32,000 bases of DNA from an uncultured Actinomycetes bacterium (GCA_963843975.1 CAWJMG010000003.1:1500001-1532000); one strand, 5' to 3'. Shown: positions 8,706-27,127, numbered from the stretch's first letter. A program made the numbers and translations. Notes: a model not told the origin generated them from the sequence alone.

Positions 8706-9362
8706 TCAGCGTGCGGTCGGGACGACCGAGAGGCGCACCGGGCCGGCGCTGTTGCGCACGAAGACCTGCCCGGCAGGAGTGACGAGCCGCTTCCAGCCGC
8801 TCGTCGTGCCCGTCTCGATGCGCGCACCGGGATGGGTCAGGAAGCCCAGCAGCCGCGCGGCGTGCAGCGCGCGCATGGGCACGCCGCCCCAGCCCGCGGC
8901 GTCCCAGGCCGCCTCGGCCACGAGCTCGGCGTGGAACGACCCGGAGCTCGGGACGGCGGCCCGGAACGCTGCCACCGCGGCGTCGACCCTCGGGGTCACG
9001 TCGCCGGCGAGGCCGCGCTCCCCCGGGCTCCACGGCGAGCGGGGAGGCAGCACGGCCAGCGAGGCAGCGCCCATGATCGCGTCGGGCAGGACGACGTCGG
9101 TCTCGGGTGCGAGCCGGGCGACGTCGCCGATGACGTCGCGCAGGCGGCCGGCCGAGACCGTCGTGTCGAGGGGCTCCTCGACCGGGGTCGCCAGGGGCAC
9201 GGCGACGAGCACCAGCACATCCATCGGACTGGGCGCGTAGACGCCGACGACGCTTCCGCGGGCCTGGACGCGGACGGCGGACCGCTCGTCCCAGGCCGCG
9301 ACGCGAGCGAGATAGGCGGCGAGGTACGCGACCTCGTCCTTGGCCAGCCTCAGCGTCGTCAC
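8706..9362 (-). CDS. Hypothetical protein (218 aa), family not recognised
   Basis: Coding-like composition runs from GTG 9362 (VTTLRLAKDEVAYLAAYLARV...). The upstream part of the 394-aa ORF is Ser/Arg/Ala-rich shadow sequence overlapping the plus-strand neighbour. Its stop abuts the LacI stop (TGA|TCA at 8703-8708). Confidence 0.5.
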   Translation of the reverse strand: MTTLRLAKDEVAYLAAYLARVAAWDERSAVRVQARGSVVGVYAPSPMDVLVLVAVPLATPVEEPLDTTVSAGRLRDVIGDVARLAPETDVVLPDAIMGAASLAVLPPRSPWSPGERGLAGDVTPRVDAAVAAFRAAVPSSGSFHAELVAEAAWDAAGWGGVPMRALHAARLLGFLTHPGARIETGTTSGWKRLVTPAGQVFVRNSAGPVRLSVVPTAR

Positions 9363-9400
9363 GGGGGCAACCTTGTCAGGAAGCCGAACCGTCCGCGAAC

Positions 9401-9419
9401 TGTGCGAGGTACTCGCACA
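9401..9419. promoter_or_regulatory. 19-bp palindrome TGTGCGAG-GTA-CTCGCACA in a divergent intergenic region
   Basis: Perfect 8-bp arms with a 3-nt centre lie about 40 bp upstream of the minus-strand gene start, inside the 208-bp region shared with the plus-strand gene. Confidence 0.3.
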
Positions 9420-9570
9420 ACGAGTCGTCCCGCTCTCGCAAGCGTCCAGGAGAGTCCCCCGGGTGGCGCGTGCGGCCCAGCCCGCACTACGAGGGCCCAC
9501 GCCGGGGTCGGCATGTCTCGCGACAACGGACACGTATCCAGCGGACGAATCGGATCGCGCGACGAAGGGG

Positions 9571-10680
9571 GTGGATCTAGCGTGGGTGCATGCTGGTGAA
9601 CCGTTGAGCGGCCCGGATGAGGATGGGCGGCTGGACCTCGATGAGCTCGGTCGTGTGGCAGAGGAGGGGCGCCGGCAGCGCGCTGTCGACCTCGGCGCTT
9701 CGGCATCCGACGACCACGTCGCCACAGAGGTGCAGCGGTGGGTCGACGACCTGGCCGCGCCGTGGATTCGGAGCCACCGGTTGGCCCTAGCCCTGGCCGG
9801 AGCGCTCGTTCTCGCGACCGCCATCGGAGCGACCGCGGCGGCCGACAAGGCCTCCGCCGCCCCCGTGACGCTGTCCGTCGAGATCCGCAATGCACCGCTG
9901 CCGGGCCGCGCGGCCTCGGGCCCTGTGGTGTCGGAGGACGGACTGCTGTCGGTCGCCTACTTGGCCCGGGCGACACGGCCCGGGGAACGGGTCCAGCTGC
10001 TGCGCATCGAAGGACCCGGTCTCGGCGCGTCGGAGGCGGCAGGAGTCGTCGACGACGAGTCCTTGTCACTGCTGACGGTGAGCGCCCCTGTCGACTGCTC
10101 TGACCCGTCGCTGTCCGATGCCACACCGACCTCGTACGACCTGATCGCCAGGTCCGTTGACGCCAGCGGCGCGGCCGTCATCGGGACCGTGCCGCTCGTG
10201 ATGCCGCTGGAGGCCCCGGCCGCTGGTGCGGGACGGCGACCGGTGACCCGTCTCAACCAGGCCGTCGAGCTCTGGTGCCTGGCCTTCGTGGCGCCGACCG
10301 CGGTGCAGGCCTCTGTCGTCGCCCTTACACCCGTCGCCGGGACGTCGGAAGCAGAGCTGACTCTGGACCTGCGCAACGCGTCGGTGCTCGCACTGGCGCT
10401 CCGCGCCGAGGACGTGGCAGTCGGGGGGTTTCACGCCGAGCTGTCTCCTGCGGTGGCGCTCGAACCGGGATCGACCGCTCGAGTGACGGCGCACGTGGCC
10501 TGGACGGGCTGCGATGGACAAGCGAACCTCCCGGCGCTGCGCACTCTCGAGAACCCGCAGCCTGCGGACGCCCGAGGTCCCGGCGTCGCGCTGCGCTTAA
10601 CCCTGGGCGATCGGAGCATCGTCGCGTCCTACCCGCTGCTCGGCGTCGAGCGACTCGTCATGGCAGACACCTGCTCCTGA
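9571..10680 (+). CDS. Hypothetical single-pass membrane-anchored protein with an internally duplicated extracytoplasmic domain; start uncertain
   Basis: An acidic N-terminal segment precedes a TM helix (LALALAGALVLATAIGATAAA). Two similar modules follow, each opening with (V/L)TL(S/D)(V/L)(E/D)(I/-)RNA and closing with a Cys-containing strand (LLTVSAPVDCSD and ARVTAHVAWTGCDG). Alternative in-frame GTG starts are at 9586 and 9730. Rare codons (cta, tta, ttg, aca, caa) are more frequent than in neighbouring genes. Confidence 0.5.
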   Translation: MDLAWVHAGEPLSGPDEDGRLDLDELGRVAEEGRRQRAVDLGASASDDHVATEVQRWVDDLAAPWIRSHRLALALAGALVLATAIGATAAADKASAAPVTLSVEIRNAPLPGRAASGPVVSEDGLLSVAYLARATRPGERVQLLRIEGPGLGASEAAGVVDDESLSLLTVSAPVDCSDPSLSDATPTSYDLIARSVDASGAAVIGTVPLVMPLEAPAAGAGRRPVTRLNQAVELWCLAFVAPTAVQASVVALTPVAGTSEAELTLDLRNASVLALALRAEDVAVGGFHAELSPAVALEPGSTARVTAHVAWTGCDGQANLPALRTLENPQPADARGPGVALRLTLGDRSIVASYPLLGVERLVMADTCS

Positions 10681-10704
10681 CGCCGGTCGACCGACCCGCG
10701 CGGG

Positions 10705-11205
10705 TCAGCTGTCGCCCTGCGCCAGCTCTCGGAACCGCTGGGTCGCCACGTCACGGAGCTCCTGGAAGCTGTACTGCTTCTGGCCCAGGTCGTGGGCCGG
10801 CCCGCCGTCGAGGTTCACGACGATCGCCTCCTGAGTGCTGCGGGCGACGATCATCTCCACGGCGCGGTCCGAATGGCAGTTCTCCTCGTAGTGGATGACG
10901 TTGGGGGGGATGAAGACGAAGTCACCAGGGCCGGCCTCCTTGGCCTCGTCGAGGGCATCGCCGACCCACCATCGTCCCCGGCCTCTAAGCACGAACAGCG
11001 CGGTCTCCGAGTCGCCGTGGTGGTGCACACCCGTCACCAGCCCGGGCTGGAGCAGCGAATACCCCATCCAGATCCACTGCGACCCAGCGCTCTGCGCGGA
11101 GATGGCCTCGAGCCGCAGCAGACCCGGTGTCTGCCCGGCGGCACCGTCGAGGTCGTCGGGGCGGACGACGACCACCTCACGCGCGTCGGACGTCATATGA
11201 CTCAC
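10705..11205 (-). CDS. Cupin domain protein
   Basis: Both cupin motifs are present: GVHHHGDSETALFVLRG and GDFVFIPPNVIHYEEN. GTG at 11205 is preceded by a GAGGATGAGGA ribosome-binding site. Confidence 0.8.
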   Translation of the reverse strand: MSHMTSDAREVVVVRPDDLDGAAGQTPGLLRLEAISAQSAGSQWIWMGYSLLQPGLVTGVHHHGDSETALFVLRGRGRWWVGDALDEAKEAGPGDFVFIPPNVIHYEENCHSDRAVEMIVARSTQEAIVVNLDGGPAHDLGQKQYSFQELRDVATQRFRELAQGDS

Positions 11206-11222
11206 TCATCCTCATCCTCACG

Positions 11223-12230
11223 TTAGAACTGCAGGTGGACCTTGACGTTGTCCGGGTCATCGGTCGCCTTCATGGCGGCAGCCGCCTCCTCGAACGGAAG
11301 GGTGGCCGTGATCGCGGGCCGGAGGTCGATGCTGTTGCGCTGCAGGAAGCGGAGCGCCGCCGGCCACACGCCGCTGCTGCCCGTCGTCCCCCGCACCGTC
11401 AGGTCCTTCGCCTGGATCAGCCCCCATCCACCCGCGACCTCGCCGTGGGCGCAGATCCCGATGTTCGTGATGCGCCCTGCGTGCCGGGCGAGGGTCAGGG
11501 TCGAGGCCAGGCCAGCGGGGTGCCCGGAGGCCTCGATCACGAGGTCTGCGCCGTCCACACCCACGGTGTCGCGGAGGATGTGGGAGGCGTCCTCGGTCGT
11601 GGGATCCACGACGACGTCGGCGCCGAGTGCGACAGCCAGCGCCCGGCGCACGGGGTTCGGCTCGATGACCATCGTCAGGGCGGACGAGCCGCGTGCCACC
11701 GCGAGCGCGCATTGGCCGATCATGCCGCCACCGACGATCGCCACCACGTCGGACGCGTCGATCCCACCGCTCACACGGACTGCGTTGTACGCGATCGTGA
11801 ACGGTTCGACGAGCGCGCCGCTGCTGAAGTCGACGCCTTCCGGCAGCCGGTGGAGCAGGGCGGCAGGGGTGCGGAAGAGCTCGGACGCGGCACCGTGGTA
11901 GGTGAAGCCGAACCAGTGGTTCGGGGCGATCACGCACTCGCCCACCACAGGGTCGCCCACGGAGACGTTGGTGACGTCGCGGCCGACCTCGACGACCTGG
12001 CCCGACCACTCATGCCCGGGCACCACGGGATACGGGACCGCGAGCTGGGCGTCGAGATGGCCCTCGAGCAGCTCGTTGTCCGAGCGGCAGAGACCCACTG
12101 CCTTCGCAGCCACCAGGACGTCGGTGGGCCCGATCGGATCCACCTCGACCTCGCGCACGACCACGCGGCGCGGGTCCCTCTCGAAGACGACCGCGCGAGC
12201 AGTCCTGATGTCCACCATGAGGTTCTCCAT
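11223..12230 (-). CDS. Zinc-dependent alcohol dehydrogenase (MDR superfamily; sorbitol/threonine dehydrogenase-like)
   Basis: GLCRSD and PGHEWSGQVVEVG zinc-ligand motifs and a VAIVGGGMIGQCA Rossmann motif. An alternative start at ATG 12218 (MVDIRT) has a GGAGAA ribosome-binding site. Confidence 0.88.
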   Translation of the reverse strand: MENLMVDIRTARAVVFERDPRRVVVREVEVDPIGPTDVLVAAKAVGLCRSDNELLEGHLDAQLAVPYPVVPGHEWSGQVVEVGRDVTNVSVGDPVVGECVIAPNHWFGFTYHGAASELFRTPAALLHRLPEGVDFSSGALVEPFTIAYNAVRVSGGIDASDVVAIVGGGMIGQCALAVARGSSALTMVIEPNPVRRALAVALGADVVVDPTTEDASHILRDTVGVDGADLVIEASGHPAGLASTLTLARHAGRITNIGICAHGEVAGGWGLIQAKDLTVRGTTGSSGVWPAALRFLQRNSIDLRPAITATLPFEEAAAAMKATDDPDNVKVHLQF

Positions 12231-12284
12231 CGGATGCGTCGGAGGAGGGGGCCTCCGGGGTCAGGGTGTGGGCGGGCCGGCGCC

Positions 12285-12788
12285 CTAGGGCGAACCGAAG
12301 GTCAGGATGCGGACCGGCTCTACGCGGTACAGCACCCGCACCTCGCCACCCCGCGGATCGCGCATGGGATACGGCCGCTCGCCGAGGTAGAGGCCCGCCA
12401 GGTCGTCGATGCTCTCCGTGGCCAGGTGCCCCTGCTCGGGATCGTCCTCGTCGATGATCTCCACCACGCGGCCATCCACCGACATCCAGTGGTACGGGTT
12501 CGCCGGATTCATGAACAGGAGGGCTACCACGCCGTTGTCGCGGAGGTTGCGATCCTTGAGCCTCCCCCGCTTGGTGTTCAGCAGGATGTGCTCGCCTTCG
12601 ACGCCGACCCAGACGGGCGACACCTGCAGCGCGCCCGCGGCACTGACCGTGGTCAAGGACGCGGTCACCGCGGCCGTGAGCAACTCCAGGTAGCGAGGAG
12701 CGAGATCGGCCAGGCCCCCGGTGCGCGTGCTCTCAGACGTGAAGGCGTCGTCGTTCCCTGGTGCGATCAGATCACCGATGCTGGCCAT
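12285..12788 (-). CDS. PPOX-class (pyridoxamine 5'-phosphate oxidase-like, possibly F420/FMN-dependent) split-barrel protein
   Basis: About 167 aa from ATG 12788, with a GGAG upstream. The pattern LTTVSAAGALQVSPVWV...ILLNTKRGRLKDRNLRDNGVVALLF is typical of the PPOX/general stress protein 26 fold. Confidence 0.7.
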   Translation of the reverse strand: MASIGDLIAPGNDDAFTSESTRTGGLADLAPRYLELLTAAVTASLTTVSAAGALQVSPVWVGVEGEHILLNTKRGRLKDRNLRDNGVVALLFMNPANPYHWMSVDGRVVEIIDEDDPEQGHLATESIDDLAGLYLGERPYPMRDPRGGEVRVLYRVEPVRILTFGSP

Positions 12789-12855
12789 GCTGCTCCGACT
12801 CCTCATGCGTGACTACGAGCGGACCTCGACGTCGTTGCGTTGTGCTCGTGGGTCG

Positions 12856-14332
12856 TCACGACGTTAGGCCCGAGCCGCGCGTCGACGGCTCCTCGCTGAT
12901 GGCAGCTTCCTTGCCCGCTCGCGCAGCGCGGAGATGCTCGGGCGGCTCGGAGGCCGCTGGCGGAGCGGACGCGAGCAACTCCGCGCCGAGGATCGTCGCG
13001 AGAAGCTCGAGCCGACGCAGGGACGGTCGCGTCTCACCCGTCTCCCACCGATGGACGGTGGCTCCTGATACACCGATGCAGCGACCCAGGCCTGCACCGG
13101 TCAGGCCCTCGCGCTGGCGGAGGGCACGGATCCTGTCCTGGAGCGGCACTGCACCCCACTCGATCCCGCAGAGGAGCGGAGGGCAGGTGCACAGCGCCTG
13201 CGGCGGCACTCCCAGGGCAGATCCGAGCAGACTGAGGCGCGCGTGCCCCGGGCACCGCCCTGTGCGCTCCCAGGAGCTGACGAGAGCGGGCGGCACGCCC
13301 GTGCGCCGACCCAGCTCGGCCAGGCTGAGACCTCGACGTGCACGTGCCTCGGCGAGAGTGCCAACGGTCGAGGGGACCTTCTTCGGCGACAGCCGGCGCA
13401 AGGATGCCGACGGCCGGTGGAGGTCGATGCCGAGAAGCTGCTCGAGCAGGACCACCGTCTGCGCCGGGATCGCTCGCCGGCCCACGACCCAGTGGCGCAG
13501 GACACGCTCCTCGACACCTAGCGCGACTGCGAGGTCCTCGGTCCGGATGTCGTGGTGCTCCAAGTAGTCGCGCAGGCCGGGGAGCTTGCCGATGCCGGAA
13601 CGTGAGGTCTCCGGGTACCCGCTGAACCAGGTGTGGACGTCGTCGAGCTCGCAGGAGAAGACCTCGGCGAGGGACGGGAAGAGGTCGAGCGGGGGCCGCC
13701 TCTCCCCGCCCTCCCATCGGGAGTACGTGGACACGGCGACCGAGAGTCGCACGGCGACTTCGGGCTGGGACCAGCCGCGCTCGAGGCGCCTGCGGCCCAA
13801 CATCGTAAGGTTCTCCGGCTGCGACCAGGCAGCGCGACGGACCTGGTCCCTTCCAGCGGCGCGTCGGACCGCCTCTACTGGCGCTCCCAGCCACTCCGCC
13901 AGAAGGGGCAGCCGTCGGGGGTCCGGGACCCGCCCTGCCTCCCATGTGGCGACCACGGTGGAGCACACGTCGAGCCTCCCGCGCGACGGCGCGCTGCGAC
14001 AGGGCCAGACGTCTGCGGTTCTGCTCGAGCAGCGCTCCCAGTTCGCCCGCACGCCAGCCCCGGTGTGGAGGCAGGCGATGGTCCGGCAGCCCGCACCGAC
14101 GGCGGAGCCGCCCGAGGTCGGCGCCTGTCTCACGGCAGAGACGGACGACGATCCGGTCCGGCGGGAACGCGTCCCCGGCCTCCCACGTGGCGAGCTCGGA
14201 CAACTCGACGTCAAGCCGACGGGCGAACACGGCGAGCGAGACGCCGCACTCGGCGCGCCATCGGCGGATCTCGAGGAACGGCGACTCCGCGGACGGCAGC
14301 AGGCGCTCCGGCGCGCACGCCAGCGCGGTCAT
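12856..14332 (-). pseudogene. Protein made of six tandem XRE-type helix-turn-helix modules, interrupted by an apparent 1-nt insertion near 13975
   Basis: The N-terminal 1.4 modules read in the frame of ORF 13034..14386, from ATG 14332. The remainder reads in the frame of ORF 12856..14214. Past the junction each frame turns into Arg/Pro/Gly-rich sequence. Module 2 is split: ...LALSQRAVARE | LDVCSTVVATWEAG. The modules lie at about 14281-14105, 14047-13867, 13812-13636, 13584-13420, 13368-13192 and 13143-12976. Each carries a W(E)xG signature (ATWEAG, ATWEAG, SRWEGG, RHWVVG, SSWERTG, HRWETG). Confidence 0.7.
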
Positions 14333-14419
14333 GAGGCGAGGGCGAGCGGGTGCCGCACCCCGCCCGATCCGGACTCTGCACGGCACTCGACGAGGACCGC
14401 GGTGCGCCGTCCCACTCGG

Positions 14420-14755
14420 TCACCGGCAGGCAACGGTGATCTCCTGGACGAAGGCGACGCCGGCAAGCTCGGGGTTCGCCCCCGTGGCGGTGAGAGGCCG
14501 CACGAAGGTCTCGAGGACGACCTTCGGATCCTTCTCCCACGCTGTGCAAAGGTCGCCCAGCTTTGCGGGCGCCATCTCGGAGAGCATCGTGCGGATGCCG
14601 TCCTTGACCAGGGCCAGCTGCTGCTGCGCGCTCAGGCTCGACCGTGGTGTCGGGGTCGAGGTGCTCACGCCTCCGGAATCGCCGGCGCGACCGCACGCCG
14701 CGAGGCTTAGCACCGTCATGGCAACGGCGACCGACGACAGTCGTGCCCCCCTCAT
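14420..14755 (-). CDS. Small putative lipoprotein (111 aa)
   Basis: ATG 14755 has GGAGG 6 nt upstream. The signal peptide MRGARLSSVAVAMTVLSLAAC ends in a lipobox (LAAC). The start overlaps the upstream gene's stop (ATGA at 14752-14755). Confidence 0.6.
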   Translation of the reverse strand: MRGARLSSVAVAMTVLSLAACGRAGDSGGVSTSTPTPRSSLSAQQQLALVKDGIRTMLSEMAPAKLGDLCTAWEKDPKVVLETFVRPLTATGANPELAGVAFVQEITVACR

Positions 14756-15711
14756 CCAGCGCCTCCGCCCGCAGCGGACGTGCTGGCCTGTCGGGACGCG
14801 GCATGCTCTCCGAGGATGAGTTGACGGACCTCCGGCCCGATCTGATTGACGGCTCCGAGCCGGGCGATCTGGGCCGCCATCTGCGGGGTTCGAAGGCCGG
14901 CCGTGGTGATCACGCCGTGGTTGTAGACGGTGAAAGTGCGCAGCACCTGCTGCACGTGCACCGTCCTGGACAGCGAGGCCAGGAGGGACGCGACCTGGGT
15001 CCACGACGGGCTCCGGGCGAACGCCTGGCGGGCGACGGCGTCCCCGAACATCACCTCGACGCAGGCCTGGTACTGGCGGTCCGCGTCCTCCCAGTTGGAG
15101 ACGTTGGGGGCCAGCAGGGTCACGGCCTCGTTGTCGTATGGCTCAGGGAGACGCACCCTCACCTTCACGATCTCCGGAGCCGCCGCCAGGAGAGGGGCAA
15201 CTTCCTGAAGCACTGCCGCGCTGAAGTCCTCGGCCGTGACCTCGGGGCTCCTGCGGAGGTAGAGCATGAACTTCTGATGAGGAGCGAGATCCCCGTTGGG
15301 AGAGTCGTCCTGGCTCTCGTCGAGGAGCGTGACGCTGCCGTCGGCCGGAGCCTGATAGGAGATCGTCTTGCGGAACACATTCTGCTCATCGTCCATGAGC
15401 GGGTGCAGGGCTGCTGCGAAGCGGCCAAGTTGTTCCGCCGAGACAAAGGTGATCTCGGCGTCGCCGTAGAAGCGCTCGTCCGGGGTGAAGACCTGATTCG
15501 TCCCCTCGATGGGCGGCAGCAGCCCACCGCCCCGGGGGTCGAGCTGGTGCTGGAAGTACTGGTGGATGCCGGGCAGCCGCGAGGAGATCTGCGTGTGCGC
15601 CCCGACCCAGTAGTCGTAGAAGTCCTGCACCTCGAGGCCGACACGCGGCCAGAGCAGGTTCATCATGGCGACGTGCACGATCTCCGAGCGCGATTCGGTC
15701 AAGCCGGTCAC
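14752..15711 (-). CDS. EthD-domain protein (at least two EthD-like dimeric alpha/beta-barrel repeats)
   Basis: GTG 15711 has GAGGAG 6 nt upstream. The first repeat reads MMNLLWPRVGLEVQDFYDYWVGAHTQISSRLPGIHQYFQH and the second KFMLYLRRSPEVTAEDFSAAVLQEVAPLL. The upstream part of the 428-aa ORF is Arg-rich shadow sequence over the YciI gene. Confidence 0.65.
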   Translation of the reverse strand: MTGLTESRSEIVHVAMMNLLWPRVGLEVQDFYDYWVGAHTQISSRLPGIHQYFQHQLDPRGGGLLPPIEGTNQVFTPDERFYGDAEITFVSAEQLGRFAAALHPLMDDEQNVFRKTISYQAPADGSVTLLDESQDDSPNGDLAPHQKFMLYLRRSPEVTAEDFSAAVLQEVAPLLAAAPEIVKVRVRLPEPYDNEAVTLLAPNVSNWEDADRQYQACVEVMFGDAVARQAFARSPSWTQVASLLASLSRTVHVQQVLRTFTVYNHGVITTAGLRTPQMAAQIARLGAVNQIGPEVRQLILGEHAASRQASTSAAGGGAG

Positions 15712-15749
15712 GGGGCTCTCCTCGTCCTGTGAGCAGTGGACGCCTGGAT

Positions 15750-16031
15750 TCAGGCGAGGTCGAGCCCGTCGGCGACCCGTGCGGGCTCGAACTCGACGAC
15801 CTCGTAGTCGGCGACTCCGTGCTGGACGAACGGGTCCTGCGCGAGCAGCGCCTCCGCACCGGCCGCGTCCAGCCCCCGGGCGAGGATCACGGCGCCGACC
15901 CCACCGTCGCGGAGCCCCGAGGCCACGAAGATGCCGGATTCGTACCCCTTGTCGACCCACTCGAGATGGGCATCGAGGTGGGAGCCCAGGATCTCGGCGT
16001 CGACCTTGTACGTGGACTTCAGGATGATCAC
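15750..16031 (-). CDS. YciI family protein
   Basis: 93 aa. GTG 16031 has GGAGGAG 6 nt upstream. The pattern HLDAHLEWVDKGYESGIFVASG...ILARGLDAAGAEALLAQDPFVQHGVADYEVVEF matches the YCII-related domain. Confidence 0.78.
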   Translation of the reverse strand: MIILKSTYKVDAEILGSHLDAHLEWVDKGYESGIFVASGLRDGGVGAVILARGLDAAGAEALLAQDPFVQHGVADYEVVEFEPARVADGLDLA

Positions 16032-16140
16032 GGGTCACTCCTCCGTTGGGGCCGTCTGGGGTCGGCGTCCCGGACGAGGAGACGCGAGAAGGCTCGGGAT
16101 GTCGTCTCGGCGCGGCCGTCGCCGGCCGCTCGAGCGGGCG

Positions 16141-16530
16141 TCAGTAGACGATGAACTCGATGACGTTGCCGTCGGGGTCGAGGATGAAGGTCTGCCGATC
16201 GGCTGCCGGAGAGTTGGGCAGTTCGTAGACGGGCACGCCATGGGCGCGCAGGCCGTCGAGGTAGGCGTCGAGATCCCCCATGAACCGGATGGCGAAGTGC
16301 GGGTCGTTGGCCCGGAGAGGCGCATCGTGACCGCGCATAGTGCCGCCGGTCGTCAGGTGCACGGGGTTGCCTGAGATGCTCAGCCATGCACCGGGGAAAC
16401 CGAAGTCGGGGCGAGGGATCTGCTCGAGGCCGAGCAGGTCGCAGTAGAACTTCACGGACGCGTCGATGTCGGACACGCTGATGCTGACGTGGTCGAACCT
16501 GAAGGACGCGTCGGGGTCGAGTGCGTTCAT
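16141..16530 (-). CDS. VOC (glyoxalase/bleomycin-resistance/dioxygenase) family protein
   Basis: 129 aa from ATG 16530. FRFDHVSISVSDIDASVKFYCDLLGLE and HFAIRF...LRAHGVPV...ILDPDGNVIEF are the paired beta-alpha-beta-beta-beta module signatures. The longer listed ORF (to 16752) runs across the terminator palindrome. Confidence 0.8.
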   Translation of the reverse strand: MNALDPDASFRFDHVSISVSDIDASVKFYCDLLGLEQIPRPDFGFPGAWLSISGNPVHLTTGGTMRGHDAPLRANDPHFAIRFMGDLDAYLDGLRAHGVPVYELPNSPAADRQTFILDPDGNVIEFIVY

Positions 16531-16627
16531 GCGGCAAGCCTCATCCGACGGTGGCGGGCTGTCTTCGTTGGTCATCACAAGGACGCGCGCGTTTGTTGTG
16601 GGCAGCCCGCGCCAGGGAGGACGAGAC

Positions 16628-16667
16628 GGGTGTGGCCCCGGTGCCGATCGGCACCGGGGCCACACCC
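16628..16667 (-). terminator. Perfect 40-bp palindrome (18-bp GC-rich stem around GATC) downstream of the ABC substrate-binding protein gene
   Basis: GGGTGTGGCCCCGGTGCC-GATC-GGCACCGGGGCCACACCC lies 22 nt after the stop at 16689. It has no strong U-tract and is symmetric, so it could act in either direction. Confidence 0.6.
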
Positions 16668-16688
16668 GTTCTGGCAGCGCTGGGACTG

Positions 16689-18041
16689 TCAGCCCTTGAC
16701 GCAGCCGTCCACGTTCTCGGGCAGCTTGCCCTGCGACCAACCGTCCGGGCACGCCGCGCGGGTGATGTAGCGACGCGACGCATCCTGCTCGAAACCGGCC
16801 AGGTACTCAGCCGTGTACGGTGTTGCGACGTCCTTGGCGTTCGGCTCACCGCTCTTGGCGGCCGACAGTGAAGCCTCGGGGAGCATCACGTTGAAGATGT
16901 CCGCGGTCTCCTCGTCCCCGACCTTGCCGTCGGGGAAGACGTTGCAGCCGTCGACCTGGTAGTCGCCTTCGCACACCTTCACGTTGTCCTTCGTCACGAC
17001 GGTGTAGGGCACCTCGATGTCCTTCGGGATGCCGTCCGTGCCCGTGAGCAGCAGCGCGAGCATCACCTTCATGGCAATGCCTCCCTGAGCCGGGGGCGAC
17101 CCGATGCTGATCCCCGGCCAGCCGTTGAGCAACTGGGTCCGGAAGTAGTTCGAGGTCTCACCGCTGACGGGGATGGTCTTGCCCTCGGCCTTCAGCGCCT
17201 TCACGCAACCGGACTCGCCGTAGCCGCAGAAGATGCCGGACACGTTCGGGAAGGAGCTCAGCGCCTTTGCCGTCTCCTTCTGCTGCTGCGCACTGTCCCA
17301 CTTGCCCTCGTACTCGGTGAGGATCTTCGTGCTCGGGGCGATGTTCTGCAGCGCCGCGAGCGCCGAGCCGTAGTGCACGATGTCGGTTGAGGTTCCGACA
17401 ACGCCGTGCGACACGAAGATGTCGCCCTGCTTGTTCATCAGCTCGAGCAGACCGGCCATGGCGTTGTAGCCCATGAAGGGGTGCTCTGCCGGCTGGCCGT
17501 TGGGCAGCGTCGGCACGCTCGTGATGTAGGAGACGTTGTAGATGCACGGCTCGGTGGCCGTGGCGTCGTAGACGATGACCGTGACCCCCTGGTCGCAAGC
17601 CTCCTTGTACGCCGAGTTGATGGCCGTCGGGGAGAGCGCGTAGCTGAGGATGCCGTCGGCTCCGGCTGCCACCATGGACTGCACCTGTGAGATCTGAGCC
17701 TGCGGGTCGGGCTCGGTGAGCTCCTTACGGACCTCGACGCAGCCGTTGTACGGTGCCATCTTCGCCACGGCGAGTCCGAGGTTCTCGGCCTCCTCCTGCC
17801 AGGAGTTGCCGATGTTGAGCGCGGTCATGTAGACGATGTACTTGTCGCCACCGGCACGCGGAGGAGCTGGATGCTCGGCAGCGCACGGGTCGGACGCGGC
17901 AGCGGCGCCACCGGTCGAGCTCTGACTGGTGCCGGGTGCTGCGGTCGAGGAGGTGTCTGACGTCGTAGCGCTCCCGCAGGCGCTCAGCATCAGTGCACCG
18001 GCGGCGGCCATGACAGCCAGCGCCTTCCAGTTGTTCTTCAT
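16689..18041 (-). CDS. ABC transporter substrate-binding lipoprotein (type I periplasmic-binding fold, CUT2 sugar-type), unusually long
   Basis: ATG 18041 has GAAGGGA 5 nt upstream. The signal peptide carries a lipobox (MLSAC) and is followed by a Ser/Thr-rich linker. The PBP core includes YIVYMTALNIGNSWQ, GADGILSYAL and GVTVIVYD. A C-terminal extension of about 110 aa carries extra Cys pairs. Confidence 0.82.
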   Translation of the reverse strand: MKNNWKALAVMAAAGALMLSACGSATTSDTSSTAAPGTSQSSTGGAAAASDPCAAEHPAPPRAGGDKYIVYMTALNIGNSWQEEAENLGLAVAKMAPYNGCVEVRKELTEPDPQAQISQVQSMVAAGADGILSYALSPTAINSAYKEACDQGVTVIVYDATATEPCIYNVSYITSVPTLPNGQPAEHPFMGYNAMAGLLELMNKQGDIFVSHGVVGTSTDIVHYGSALAALQNIAPSTKILTEYEGKWDSAQQQKETAKALSSFPNVSGIFCGYGESGCVKALKAEGKTIPVSGETSNYFRTQLLNGWPGISIGSPPAQGGIAMKVMLALLLTGTDGIPKDIEVPYTVVTKDNVKVCEGDYQVDGCNVFPDGKVGDEETADIFNVMLPEASLSAAKSGEPNAKDVATPYTAEYLAGFEQDASRRYITRAACPDGWSQGKLPENVDGCVKG

Positions 18042-21609: not shown

Positions 21610-21664
21610 GCGCGACTTCTCCTTACCACTGGGGTGGTGACTAGTGGTACGCACACCGGAGCCG

Positions 21665-21678
21665 CTTCGCTAGCGAAG
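21665..21678. promoter_or_regulatory. 14-bp perfect palindrome CTTCGCTAGCGAAG in the AT-richer leader upstream of the ABC operon
   Basis: It lies about 55-70 nt upstream of the ATPase start in the 200-nt gap between the ligase stop (21811) and the ATPase start (21609). A second inverted repeat, ACCACT-N12-AGTGGT (21625-21648), abuts the ribosome-binding site. Confidence 0.25.
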
Positions 21679-21810
21679 GGACGGATTCGTTACCTGGGTT
21701 GCCGAACCGTGATGTACAGCGTCGGTAGTGGTCGTGTGGCACCGAAAGGTATCCCCGACCTAGCCGCGAATCTCTGTGGCGCAGCACAAGATGCCCGGAC
21801 GTCGTTGGTG

Positions 21811-23134
21811 TCAGCCCACGACGCGCTCTATCAGCCTTTCCTTCTGCGCACCCGGCCGCTCGATCGACCCCTCGGGTACGAGCGAGACGTTCGTGCGCAC
21901 CGTGAGCGCATCCCGCACGGCGTCCTCGATCTGTCGCGCCAGCTCGCCGTGCGCGTGCACGTCCGAGCCGGCGACCTCCACCCGCGCCGAGAGTGCCTGG
22001 TACGTGCTGTGGCCCACGAAGTCGATGTCGAGCTTCAGATATCCCGTGGTCCGCGGCCGGAAGCCCATGACGACCTCCTTGATCGCGGCCGGGAAGACGT
22101 TGACGCCTCGAACGATGAGCATGTCGTCGGCCCTGCCGTGGGCCTTGATGCGATACCCCGTGCGCCCGCACCGGCATGCGGTCGAGGTGACGGTGACGAC
22201 GTCGCCCATCCGGTAGCGCATGAGAGGTGTCGCCCTGCGCCGCAGGGTCGTATAGACGAGCTCGCCCGACACGCCCTCCTCGACTGGAAGCGGTTCCAGG
22301 GTGTCGGGATCGATGATCTCGACGTGCAACGCGGCCTGCGAGCAGAGGTGCATGCCATCCTTCTCGTCGCACTCGGCCCAGTACGTCGATCCGAAATCGG
22401 CGCCGCCCATCATGTCCCGCACGTCGGCGTTCCAGAGGGACTCCATCTGCTGTCGGATCGCCGGCTCGCCTGCGCCGGGCTCGCCCCCGACCGAGATCTT
22501 GCGTACCGAGAAGCTCCGTCGCGTCCTTTCCGAGCACGTCCCGGGCCGCCGCGCCCAGGTGCGCAACCATGGACGGTGTCGCGCACATCGCCACGGGCTT
22601 CAGGTGGTCTATGGCGCGCAGCAGACGCTCCGTGCCCGACTCCGCTCCGAGCGGGATCACGGCACAGCCGAGGTGCTGCAGGTGCTCGACGTTGACGAGC
22701 CCCCCGACGAATCCTCGACCCATCGCGTACGCGTGCATCACCCAGTCGCGAGGGCGGAACCCGTTTGCGTAGAAGACCCGGGCCCCCATCGCGTTCCAGG
22801 TCTCGAGATCCTCCGAGGTGGCCGCGACGAATGTCGGCGTGCCCGTCGTCCCGGAGGAGGACTGGATCTGCACGATCTCGTCGAGTGCGGCCGCGACGTG
22901 CAGCCCTAGCGGCGGACGGGTGACGAGGCTCTGTCGCACCTCGTCCTTCGTCGTGAACGGCATCTCCGCCAGATCCCGAAGCGAGCCGATCCTGGGACGA
23001 ACCTCGGCGAGCTTCTGCTGGTAGAACTCGGACCTCGCCATCACGTAGTCCATCTGCTCCTGGAACAGACGCTCGTGCACCGCCTCGACCTCGGCCCATG
23101 GCTGGGCCTCGATCGGATCGAAGACGTCGGCCAC
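21811..23134 (-). pseudogene. Phenylacetate-CoA ligase / coenzyme F390 synthetase family (PaaK-like) adenylate-forming enzyme, interrupted by an apparent 1-nt insertion near 22510-22513
   Basis: The N-terminal about 207 aa read in the frame of ORF 21641..23821, from GTG 23134 (AAGGTGG upstream; includes the SSSGTTGTPT AMP motif). The C-terminal about 233 aa read in the frame of ORF 21811..22566 (KISVGGEPG..., LMRYRMGD, MLIVRGVNVFP). The junction reads ...GKDATEL | SVRKISVGGEP. Removing one base gives a continuous 440-aa product. Confidence 0.8.
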
Positions 23135-23138
23135 AGCG

Positions 23139-24161
23139 TCACACCACCTTGCGGATCTCGTCGGGAAGGCCGTACATGCGGAACTCCGGGACGACGCCCT
23201 GGCCGAAGAGCTGGATCGCCTTGGCGGTCTGGCCCGCGTGCATCGTGTGGTACGCGAGACGCGCCACCAGGTAGTTGACGCCGAGCTCCGCCTGGTAGCG
23301 GTACAGCTGCTCGATGCATGTGTCGGGGTCGCCGATGACGAACCTGTCGGCCGCGTAGTCCTCGAAGGTCGTGAACTCCTGGACCTCGCCCGACGCGGCG
23401 AACTGCCGGTAGAGGGAGTCGAGCGCAGGCCGTGCGTGCTCGAGCGCCTCTGCCGTCGTGGGTGCCACGAACACCTCGCGTGCGAGGGGAACGATCTCGC
23501 CGGCGCGGGGAGTGCGTCCGACGTAGAGCGGGCGGAGCTCCTCGAGCGACAGGTGCGCGGAGCCGAAGTGCGGAAGGCCTTCCGCCGCGGCCGCACGGGC
23601 CGCAGTGTCCCCTCCCGCCAGCCACATCGGCATCTCCAGCTGAGCAGGCTTGGGCTGCACCGATATCGAGTGGAGGCCGGCCGCCACGGTGTGCGCCTCC
23701 AACTCTCCGGGGATCGTGTGGAACTCGCTGTGATGGTTGAAGGGGTTGGGCCCCCAAGACTTGCGGAGGACGGCGATGTCGTCGCGGATCCGCTCGACGC
23801 TGTTCTGGCCGCGCCAGCCACGGGCCACCTCGTCGGAGGCCACCTGGCCCGCGACGATCACGCGGCCGTTGGAGATGTTGTCGATGCAGGCGACCTCCTC
23901 GGCGACGTAGATCGCGTTGACGAGCCCGAGGATGGGCATCATCCCGATGCGCAGGTGGGTCGTCCGGTGGGCCAGCGCAGCGGCCACGACGGACGACGAC
24001 GCATTGAACGACGACGCCGTGAAGTTGCGCTCGTCGACCCATACGGAGTCGAACCCCCACCACTCGGCGATCACTGCCTGCTCGAGGGCCTCCTCGTACA
24101 CGTCGACGTGGTTCTTCCCAGCCGCCGCCTCGATGGTGAGCGGACCCAGTCCGAAACGCAT
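23139..24161 (-). CDS. Luciferase-like monooxygenase (LLM) family flavin/F420-dependent oxidoreductase, 'B-type' subunit, copy 1
   Basis: 340 aa. ATG 24161 has a GAGGAG ribosome-binding site. MRFGLGP...WGFDSVWVDER...RIGMMPILGL...YVAEE are TIM-barrel LLM signatures. It is a paralogue of 30488..31531. Confidence 0.88.
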   Translation of the reverse strand: MRFGLGPLTIEAAAGKNHVDVYEEALEQAVIAEWWGFDSVWVDERNFTASSFNASSSVVAAALAHRTTHLRIGMMPILGLVNAIYVAEEVACIDNISNGRVIVAGQVASDEVARGWRGQNSVERIRDDIAVLRKSWGPNPFNHHSEFHTIPGELEAHTVAAGLHSISVQPKPAQLEMPMWLAGGDTAARAAAAEGLPHFGSAHLSLEELRPLYVGRTPRAGEIVPLAREVFVAPTTAEALEHARPALDSLYRQFAASGEVQEFTTFEDYAADRFVIGDPDTCIEQLYRYQAELGVNYLVARLAYHTMHAGQTAKAIQLFGQGVVPEFRMYGLPDEIRKVV

Positions 24162-24189
24162 GGTGTCTCCTCAGTCGCTGTGTCAGGCG

Positions 24190-25236
24190 TCAGACGTACG
24201 GGATGACTTCGGTGGCCAGCAGTTCGAGCGACCGCAGGTACTTCTTCCGCGGGAGCGAGTCGAACCTCGTGCCGAAGATGATGTGGTCGACGCCGGTGGC
24301 AGCGATCTCACGGACACCGCGCAGCACGCGCTCGGGTCGCCCGATCGTGCGCTCGTGGACGGAGACGAGCTTCGCCGCCGCGGCGTCGAGCTCGCGCGGC
24401 CGGTCGAAGCCGACGGGCTCGCCTTCGTCGTCGACGAGGTAGCGCCAGCCGCCGAGCTGCTCACGGAGCAGGAACCGCAACGACGGGAGTGCCTCGCGGT
24501 ACGCCTCCTCGTCCGTCTCCGCGACCCATCCGCGCCGCAGCACCGCGATCTTGGCGCCGGAGTCGGACGTGCCGAACTCCTCCTGCGAGGTCCGGTAGAG
24601 CTCGATGTGGTGGCGCATCTGCTCGAGGGTGAGAGCGTCGGACAGGATGATCGAGGCCCCGAGGCGCGCCGCGCGCTTCACCGGGTTGGTGCCCACGGCG
24701 GCGATCCAGATCGGGATCTCGCGCTGGATCGGCTTGGGGGTCACCGACACGTCGGGGACCTGGAACTGCTGGCCCTCGAAGCTCACCGGGGAGTCGCCCC
24801 AGGCGCGCTTGAGGACCTCCACCCCCTCCTCGAACCGGGGACGGCGGGTCCGGCGGTCGATGTTGAAGCCGTCGAACTCGTTGTCGCGGTAACCCAGGCC
24901 GAGGCCGAGATCGAGACGGCCTCCCGACAGCTGGTCCACGACGGCCGCCTGGTGCGCGACCCGCAGGGCCTCGTGCTCGCTGAACAGGAGCGTCGACTGC
25001 CCGATCCGGATGTGCTTGGTGGCGGCGGCGATGCCACCGGCGACGGTAAGGAGCGAGGGGCAGTAGCCGTCGTACCAGAAGTGGTGCTCGGTCTGCCAGA
25101 TCGTATGGATCGTGCGCAGCTCGTCGACGAACTGCGCGTCCTCCATCAGCTCGTTGTAGAGGTAGGAGAAGTGACGCGGCCCCGCCTTCGTGGACTGGAG
25201 GCTCCAGATGCCGACCCCGATCTCAACCTTCCCCAT
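24190..25236 (-). CDS. Luciferase-like monooxygenase (LLM) family oxidoreductase, 'A-type' subunit, copy 1
   Basis: 348 aa. ATG 25236 has GAAGGAG 6 nt upstream. It contains IGVGIWS...WQTEHHF...RIGQSTLL...QLSGGRLDLGLGLGY. It is a paralogue of the partial gene at 31533..32000. Confidence 0.88.
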   Translation of the reverse strand: MGKVEIGVGIWSLQSTKAGPRHFSYLYNELMEDAQFVDELRTIHTIWQTEHHFWYDGYCPSLLTVAGGIAAATKHIRIGQSTLLFSEHEALRVAHQAAVVDQLSGGRLDLGLGLGYRDNEFDGFNIDRRTRRPRFEEGVEVLKRAWGDSPVSFEGQQFQVPDVSVTPKPIQREIPIWIAAVGTNPVKRAARLGASIILSDALTLEQMRHHIELYRTSQEEFGTSDSGAKIAVLRRGWVAETDEEAYREALPSLRFLLREQLGGWRYLVDDEGEPVGFDRPRELDAAAAKLVSVHERTIGRPERVLRGVREIAATGVDHIIFGTRFDSLPRKKYLRSLELLATEVIPYV

Positions 25237-25287
25237 GAGGGACTCCTTCGGTGCGTGCCGCGGGCGCTGCAGACGGACGGATGTGTT

Positions 25288-25303
25288 TACTACCCTCGTA
25301 GTA
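25288..25303. promoter_or_regulatory. Inverted repeat TACTAC-CCTC-GTAGTA in an AT-richer patch upstream of LLM-A1 (candidate operator or internal promoter)
   Basis: It lies 52-67 nt upstream of the LLM-A1 start, inside the 105-nt gap after the 3-hydroxyacyl-CoA dehydrogenase gene. A direct GTAGGG repeat sits nearby (25301-25306 and 25312-25317). Confidence 0.3.
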
Positions 25304-25341
25304 GGGCGACTGTAGGGACGGCCCCACCGCGGGGCAATGCG

Positions 25342-26984: not shown

Positions 26985-27114
26985 GGCGGCTGGCTCCTTC
27001 ATCACGGGCGGGGATCGTTGACCGTCGCGCGTGCGCACGCCGGGGGCAGCAGGGTGCGGTCGGTGTGAGCCCACGCGGTCTTCCGCCATGGCGCCTCGGC
27101 AGGTCTCGCTCCGA

Positions 27115-27120
27115 TAACAT
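27115..27120 (+). promoter_or_regulatory. Candidate -10 hexamer TAACAT positioned for a leaderless transcript of the TrmB regulator
   Basis: This TANNNT-type hexamer ends 7 nt before GTG 27128. There is no Shine-Dalgarno sequence upstream of that start and no convincing -35 element. Confidence 0.3.
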
Positions 27121-27127
27121 CCCCGTC

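Follow-up and report, generated by a model that had tools for sequence, protein, structure and literature searches.

A stretch of 32,000 nt from an uncultured Actinomycetes bacterium (GCA_963843975.1 CAWJMG010000003.1:1500001-1532000), referred to below as the window, carries on its minus strand a gene for a protein that consists almost entirely of six tandem XRE-type helix-turn-helix (HTH) domains. Our reading, to which we give a probability of about 0.7, is that this is one intact gene, most likely split in the deposited sequence by a one-base assembly error, that it belongs to an old actinobacterial family, and that the encoded chain would read a multipartite operator. The G+C content of the window is about 70%; the source genome amounts to 4.19 Mb in 3 contigs, with an estimated completeness of 92.9%.

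Six HTH modules encoded in two overlapping frames

Two overlapping long minus-strand frames with HTH-like sequence were found at positions 12856-14386: the frame from 14332 encodes module 1 and the N-terminal half of module 2, and the other encodes the rest of module 2 and modules 3 to 6. When the uncorrected frames were scanned against Pfam, the long downstream frame gave four HTH_3 stretches and the upstream frame gave one. If base 13975 is skipped, the frames join into a single product, of which residues 1-119 are encoded by 14332-13976 and residues 120-491 by 13974-12859. All six XRE-type modules described in the first-pass annotation of this DNA were located on the minus strand within the coordinates stated there, with the same turn sequences:

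12856-14332, minus: gene of the six-HTH protein, 491 aa with base 13975 skipped; stop codon at 12858-12856
13975-13976, minus: frameshift site, GAGGCTC in the window and GAGCTC in an independent contig; one of the two G is extra
14096-14281, minus: HTH module 1, residues 18-79, turn ATWEAG; HTH_31 34.0 bits (cutoff 27); five helices in the model
13855-14041, minus: HTH module 2, residues 98-159, turn ATWEAG; HTH_31 31.2 bits (cutoff 27); includes the frameshift site
13627-13803, minus: HTH module 3, residues 177-235, turn SRWEGG; HTH_31 43.0 bits, HTH_3 41.9 bits
13432-13575, minus: HTH module 4, residues 253-300, turn RHWVVG; HTH_3 26.1 bits (cutoff 23); the least conserved in the family
13192-13368, minus: HTH module 5, residues 322-380, turn SSWERTG; HTH_3 38.0 bits
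12973-13143, minus: HTH module 6, residues 397-453, turn HRWETG; HTH_31 47.4 bits; resembles the P22 c2 repressor in sequence and fold
12859-12972, minus: C-terminal tail, 38 residues with one predicted helix, not conserved among relatives

The joined 491-aa sequence was searched in a protein collection; among the 8000 candidates considered, an exact 491-aa protein (P0001) and a 315-aa protein (P0002) were obtained, and the family alignment (A1, see below) as query gave the same two. P0002, with four modules and an ATG start at 13802, corresponds to the gene called on the 2.76-Mb source contig, and P0001 to a gene on the Logan short-read contig L015 (7336 nt, run ERR12037365). The 7336-nt alignment of L015 with window positions 9319-16655 showed one difference only, the extra G in the window, and P0001 is reproduced letter for letter once base 13975 is skipped. 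This is the single product of about 491 aa that had been expected after frameshift correction, present in intact form on an independent contig.

In the complete protein, HTH_3 of Pfam was matched in six stretches (E = 2.3e-47) and HTH_31 in five (E = 6.7e-43); the domain count obtained with hidden Markov models (HMMs) is six, not one or two. Each of the six modules, scanned alone, scored above the gathering score of HTH_31 or HTH_3. In the joined product, residues 50, 130, 206, 281, 354 and 429 are the tryptophans of the W(E)xG turns, at spacings of 80, 76, 75, 73 and 75 aa, which correspond to 219-240 nt. The six-domain array is not a chance arrangement, because six significant HMM matches occur at regular spacing.

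Pairwise identity among the modules is only 16-33%. The sole residual likeness between modules at the DNA level is a 44-nt direct repeat with 73% identity (13933-13976 and 14174-14217, 241 nt apart), which codes for the recognition helix and turn of modules 1 and 2 and at whose edge the extra G is located. Apart from this stretch, the repetition is one of protein domains and not of DNA.

No domain other than HTH was found in P0001 by the Pfam and NCBIfam scans, and no dimerisation domain was detected, in agreement with the earlier description of a product without effector, protease or oligomerisation domain. The protein has a mass of 53.9 kDa and an isoelectric point (pI) of 9.85, and its modules are joined by linkers of about 15-20 residues. 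P0001 is a cytoplasmic, basic chain of six XRE-type HTH domains with nothing further but a short tail.

The matches to NCBIfam models (RstR, MqsA, DicA and others) were confined to the HTH domain. The RstR family model (NF041951) reached 80.7 bits against a cutoff of 80, a score summed over the repeated HTH stretches; the best stretch covers positions 3-54 of the 108 of the profile, so that the match is one of domains and does not extend to the full length. For the MqsA-type antitoxin model (TIGR03830) only the HTH part was matched (67-115 of 127), the CxxCG zinc-ribbon region being left unmatched, and the Wmk model (NF047948) gave 27.2 bits against a cutoff of 300.

Separate adjacent genes were ruled out as the origin of the array. 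No stops or starts occur between the modules, and homologues hold the same six modules in one open frame.

The extra base and the integrity of the gene

Third-codon-position GC (GC3) changes over between the two frames near 14000. Programmed frameshifting was ruled out, because the independent contig simply does not have the base.

Two other genes of the source genome are also split. The genome encodes a second six-HTH protein, 33-37% identical to the window protein, whose gene (G000:C1:704386-705698, loci L012/L013) shows a one-base indel relative to its orthologue in G020, a genome of the same genus (CAGC-CGGG against CAGCTCGGG); an intact form of this paralogue, P0010 (495 aa), is on record. 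The third split gene lies inside the window (21811-23130, minus) and is phenylacetate-CoA-ligase-like, an assignment in which only the C-terminal AMP-binding_C_2 domain scored and the N-terminal part was recognised by eye. It changes frame near 22506-22520, at ...ACGGAGCTTCTCGG..., and probably represents a second one-base indel in the window; the short-read contig L138, which matches the window without gaps, ends at 22514, exactly where the frame changes.

The tetranucleotide AGCT, which occurs about once per 250 nt here, is present at all three frame-break sites (13975, the G000:C1 paralogue and about 22510). This suggests motif-linked, possibly methylation-linked, consensus errors in long-read assembly. 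Several sister genomes consist of very few contigs, yet have a completeness of 49-82%.

The extra G is most likely a consensus error of the long-read assembly, because an intact allele is found in an independent contig, three indels occur at AGCT sites and the completeness is low for 3 contigs. A rare, low-frequency real variant is less likely.

We consider it unlikely that the frameshift is real in the organism, in which case the six-module gene would be a pseudogene or a remodelled gene and only the 315-aa four-module protein would be made from the ATG at 13802, perhaps together with an N-terminal fragment. The extra G is present in the window sequence as given and the source assembly's own gene call is P0002, whereas an independent assembly that is the same over 7.3 kb lacks the base; upstream of the break, moreover, the coding signature (high GC3) and intact HTH modules persist. 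Natural relatives with modules 3 to 6 only (P0012, P0016 and the copies of Saccharothrix and Nocardioides taihuensis) show that a protein of this kind can be functional. The own-genome paralogue is frameshifted too; however, three indels at AGCT-containing sites and the low completeness for 3 contigs fit a systematic consensus error better. The deposited genome evidently contains gene-splitting single-base indels, and its annotation (315 aa, four HTH) understates the protein.

A collinear actinobacterial family

When 1.84 billion representative proteins were scanned exhaustively with HMMER, there were 2318 matches at E<=1e-3, 187 at <=1e-10 and 16 clusters at <=1e-30. The family relatives are 31-44% identical to P0001 and collinear with it module for module. 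Those with the same domain count (P0003, P0004, P0007, P0008 and P0010) align in a single end-to-end stretch over about residues 17-450; for P0003 (474 aa, 44% identity, E = 9e-95), residues 17-446 are aligned to 30-461. Five-module relatives lack module 1 (P0005, P0009, P0011, P0013 and P0014), and four-module relatives, which include P0012 and P0016 as well as the copies of Saccharothrix and Nocardioides taihuensis, retain modules 3 to 6. No curated family model covers this group of proteins with four to six HTH domains.

The family alignment (A1) showed invariant W-E...P positions in modules 3, 5 and 6 and three linker motifs, of which AAGPDRVRRP follows module 2, YP..R..VGRLPGL lies in the stretch from module 3 to module 4 and LRRR in that from module 4 to module 5. 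In P0001 these motifs are partly degenerate (AAGRDQVRRA, YPETSRSGIGKLPGL and LRRL). Conservation of the recognition helix across the family was highest for module 6 (0.80) and module 3 (0.71) and lowest for module 4 (0.43).

The G020 orthologue of the own-genome paralogue is 34% identical to P0001 and has nearly the same turn spacing. Four of the six modules of P0001 (2, 3, 4 and 6) were most similar to the same-numbered module of this homologue. Since same-numbered modules match across homologues and the spacing is kept, the array is ancient and not the result of recent tandem duplication; the fixed module order (1-6, 2-6 or 3-6) and the conserved linker motifs indicate that it is old and selected as a unit.

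Named carriers are Trujillonella humicola, Geodermatophilus sabuli, Nocardioides taihuensis, Saccharothrix hoggarensis and S. deserti; further members were found in one Mycobacteriales metagenome-assembled genome (MAG), in other Actinomycetota MAGs and in the genus of the window. The occurrence is patchy: 8 of 41 genomes of Geodermatophilaceae, 1 of 41 in the family of N. taihuensis (Nocardioidaceae) and 2 of 28 in the genus of the window (the source genome and G020). A draw of 400 genomes across the phylum gave no family member, in a search of low sensitivity that scored only 4 candidates per genome. When a degenerate DNA pattern for modules 5 and 6 was searched in genome contigs, about 10 of the 119 stretches listed belonged to the family and the rest to other HTH genes, and stricter patterns matched the genus of the window only. 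A metagenome scan gave at least three short, weak loci among the matches listed.

Some copies show peculiarities of their own. In Trujillonella humicola (L148, G445:C144) and in a further Geodermatophilaceae genome (L160, G506:C43), one in-frame TGA is present inside each match; these could be pseudogenes, sequencing errors or split genes. Saccharothrix hoggarensis has two four-HTH paralogues 8 kb apart (L149 and L147; G447:C20:40445-41413 and 49467-50387), which flank sugar ATP-binding cassette (ABC) transporter genes and oxidoreductase- and isomerase-type genes, the latter two named from their translations. A matching second copy of the S. hoggarensis paralogue is found in S. deserti.

Much longer XRE chains were observed in other organisms, some of them low-GC: P0006 (1002 aa, low-GC, at least 10 HTH_3 stretches), P0015 (703 aa) and P0017 (792 aa). 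They are likewise chains of many HTH_3 domains, but they are not collinear with the family, giving multiple short local matches and not one end-to-end alignment, and they lack the family linker motifs.

Predicted structure

The frameshift-corrected protein, P0001, was modelled with AlphaFold2 from a shallow alignment of 10 sequences. The model (mean pLDDT 74.6, pTM 0.32) contains six bundles of four or five helices and one tail helix. Its linkers at residues 163-172, 240-246, 315-323 and 383-389 are of low confidence. In a separate model of modules 5 and 6 (pLDDT 82.4, pTM 0.54), the linker was again of low confidence. Although weakly, given the shallow alignment, the models favour beads on a string over a fixed superstructure.

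A Foldseek search against the PDB gave single-domain matches only. The N-terminal domain of the P22 c2 repressor was matched with a TM-score of 0.83-0.85 and a root mean square deviation (rmsd) of 1.8 A; the other matches included C.AhdI, C.BclI and the 434 repressor, with overall TM-scores of 0.7-0.85 and rmsd values of 1.3-2.0 A. The sequence search of the PDB returned P22 c2 only, aligned to module 6. As modelled, the modules conform to the five-helix XRE bundle in which helices 2 and 3 form the HTH.

Gene neighbourhoods

In the window, the six-HTH gene is located within a co-directional run that comprises genes for a glyoxalase/VOC protein, a YCII protein, an EthD-like protein and a small lipoprotein, the six-HTH gene itself, and genes for a PPOX oxidoreductase, a Zn-dependent dehydrogenase and a cupin. 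The gene thus sits inside the gene string and not at its edge, as had been noted from the first inspection. Upstream of this run, a sugar-type ABC importer is encoded on the same strand, in a cluster 2.4 kb away from the six-HTH gene. The two immediate neighbours are:

12285-12806, minus: F420-dependent PPOX-class oxidoreductase, next gene downstream; TIGR03618 87.8 bits (cutoff 79.05), Pfam PNPOx_N
14420-14755, minus: probable lipoprotein of 111 aa, next gene upstream; gene call on L015, 87 nt from the start of the HTH gene

The upstream protein had no Pfam or NCBIfam match; a lipobox-like motif in its translation (LSLAAC) indicates a probable lipoprotein. Nothing in the neighbourhood within the window supports a mobile element, prophage or toxin-antitoxin context.

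Genes for the cofactor F420 or its enzymes adjoin the family at several loci besides the window, where the TIGR03618 gene follows directly downstream. For the own-genome paralogue and its G020 orthologue, a TTG start overlaps the stop codon of fgd, which codes for an F420-dependent glucose-6-phosphate dehydrogenase (436 bits, cutoff 420); in the source genome this is a second fgd copy. In Trujillonella and Geodermatophilus, the start of the family gene falls within the end of npdG, which codes for the NADPH-dependent F420 reductase (232 bits), and the copy of N. taihuensis is flanked by fbiC/cofGH (1489 bits) and cofD (371 bits). A five-HTH member in the Mycobacteriales MAG (L145/L183, G448:C53:39890-40978) is located between a divergent TetR-type gene with weak MftR similarity and a gene for an MftD-like pre-mycofactocin synthase, which scored 443 bits although it is cut by the contig end. 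Upstream of this member, open reading frames resembling a sugar ABC transporter and a ROK regulator were named from their translations.

Three independent F420 adjacencies among about 14 kinds of locus would arise by chance with a probability of about 1e-5, a back-of-envelope figure with no formal test behind it, which assumes roughly 6 core F420 genes in a genome of about 4500 genes. Among the family loci compared, no one neighbouring gene is conserved throughout, and the link to F420 or mycofactocin neighbours is not universal across the family. Our literature search found no link between multi-XRE proteins and F420 and nothing relevant on F420 transcriptional control; to our knowledge, how the F420 cofactor system is controlled at the level of transcription is largely unknown.

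Elsewhere in the window (23139-25341, minus), two adjacent luciferase-like monooxygenase genes were observed. The second scored 147 bits with the model of F420-dependent luciferase-like monooxygenases (TIGR03619, cutoff 166.9), and its product is possibly F420-dependent.

Repeat scans gave no convincing array of direct or inverted repeats and no palindromic operator near the six-HTH gene, and scans for promoters and terminators gave no hit. An inverted repeat with 48-nt arms, 75% complementary and without spacer, is located at 16600-16695, between the genes for an ABC substrate-binding protein and the glyoxalase; the short-read contig L015 ends inside it.

Proposed mode of action and its alternatives

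Homology and the pI of 9.85 suggest sequence-specific binding of double-stranded DNA. The chain would bind as a single polypeptide, in which several HTH modules, most confidently 3 and 6, may each read one major-groove subsite, so that the modules together would recognise a long multipartite operator. Covalent linkage would then replace the homodimerisation that single-domain XRE repressors need, and modules 1 and 4 may serve as spacers or in contacts with proteins. The chain would regulate neighbouring metabolic genes. Since family genes repeatedly adjoin redox-cofactor genes, at least some members probably act on F420- or mycofactocin-linked redox genes, which is a weaker inference.

In its most specific form, the proposal would be that of a 'polydactyl' HTH reader of an operator several helical turns long (a rough estimate), repeatedly recruited to the control of genes for low-potential redox cofactors of actinobacteria, namely those of F420 synthesis and recycling (fbiC/cofD, fgd, npdG), of F420-dependent enzymes and of mycofactocin. 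We regard this form as unlikely.

Several observations weigh against our reading as a whole or against its link to redox cofactors. Neither the DNA upstream of the gene nor the intergenic regions 21610-21810, 25237-25341 and 26985-27127 yielded a repeated operator-like motif. Modules 1 and 4, whose recognition helices are either acidic or weakly conserved, may make no contact with DNA, and the geometry between domains is without confidence in the AlphaFold2 models (pTM 0.32 for the whole protein, 0.54 for modules 5 and 6). Seven Geodermatophilaceae loci adjoin a TetR gene, five of them also thiolase/thioesterase genes; the Saccharothrix copies and the copy of another MAG adjoin sugar ABC transporter genes. 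The converse search, which started from fgd, covered 19 further fgd loci sampled from the class, none of them adjoined by a family gene.

An architectural or nucleoid-associated protein, which would coat repeated DNA or bridge distant sites genome-wide, in the manner of the three-HTH protein Cbp1 on CRISPR repeats, appears improbable. Many DNA-binding modules in one chain and linkers predicted to be flexible would suit such a role, and Cbp1 provides a precedent for HTH domains aligned along a repeat (PMC10883916); however, no candidate repeat array was seen near the gene, and the family is rare and patchy (8/41, 1/41 and 2/28 genomes), unlike a core chromatin protein. The gene neighbourhoods vary across the family, as this role would allow, but the start codon overlaps the stop of a metabolic gene located upstream in three lineages, an arrangement that suggests joint expression with particular operons.

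It is very improbable that most modules have lost DNA binding and that the chain acts by protein-protein or RNA contacts, for instance as a scaffold or an antitoxin-like partner: the state of the recognition helices of modules 1 and 4 would agree with it and XRE-fold domains serve other purposes than DNA binding in some proteins, such as the N-terminal domains of HppE and HEPD (which were among the fold matches), but the protein is strongly basic overall, in modules 3, 5 and 6 the HTH and its recognition helix are canonical and conserved, and no toxin-like partner gene is conserved beside family members.

A long composite site read by a monomer would make these proteins a natural modular scaffold for the recognition of long DNA; if the most specific form of the proposal were true, the family would be a previously unrecognised class of regulators of the F420 cofactor system. 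The family genes located beside F420 and mycofactocin genes offer a testable entry into the actinobacterial regulation of these cofactors, and some carriers are culture-collection strains, such as Geodermatophilus sabuli DSM 46844 and Nocardioides taihuensis CGMCC 4.7318.

Comparison with known systems

The literature search turned up no account of a bacterial protein in which three or more XRE HTH domains occur in tandem, and no paper on the family; the only characterised bacterial tandem-XRE-HTH protein found was Wmk. Wmk, the WO male-killing protein of Wolbachia, has two such domains (PMC12504857). It shares the tandem XRE HTH arrangement with the six-HTH protein, but it is prophage-borne and acts in a eukaryotic host.

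In Cbp1 of the Sulfolobales, three HTH domains are aligned along the CRISPR repeat, each giving a subsite (PMC10883916). By analogy, its duplicated HTH domains, joined by short linkers and bound to one DNA element, may serve as a working model for the six-HTH chain. The likeness is one of arrangement, and Cbp1 differs in having three domains, in being archaeal and in binding CRISPR repeats.

The P22 c2 and 434 repressors and the restriction-modification controller proteins C.AhdI and C.BclI are single-domain Cro/C1 (XRE) repressors. Each module of the six-HTH protein matches HTH_3 or HTH_31 and is predicted by the models to have the same five-helix bundle as these chains. These proteins have one HTH, recognise palindromic operators and act as homodimers, whereas the six-HTH protein has six different HTH domains and no separate dimerisation domain.

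The XRE HTH is among the commonest DNA-binding modules of bacteria, and in the textbook case there is one domain per chain and specificity is obtained by dimerisation. In the family described here, ordinary XRE domains occur in an unusual, conserved and unstudied multi-domain architecture. In eukaryotic arrays such as Myb R1R2R3 repeats and polydactyl zinc fingers, neighbouring DNA subsites are read by small repeated domains of a single polypeptide. The principle would be the same for the six-HTH chain, although folds and lineage are unrelated and the comparison is an analogy only. A conserved chain in which four to six different HTH domains follow one another in fixed order, with conserved linkers, would represent a different route to specificity, closer to zinc-finger and Myb arrays.

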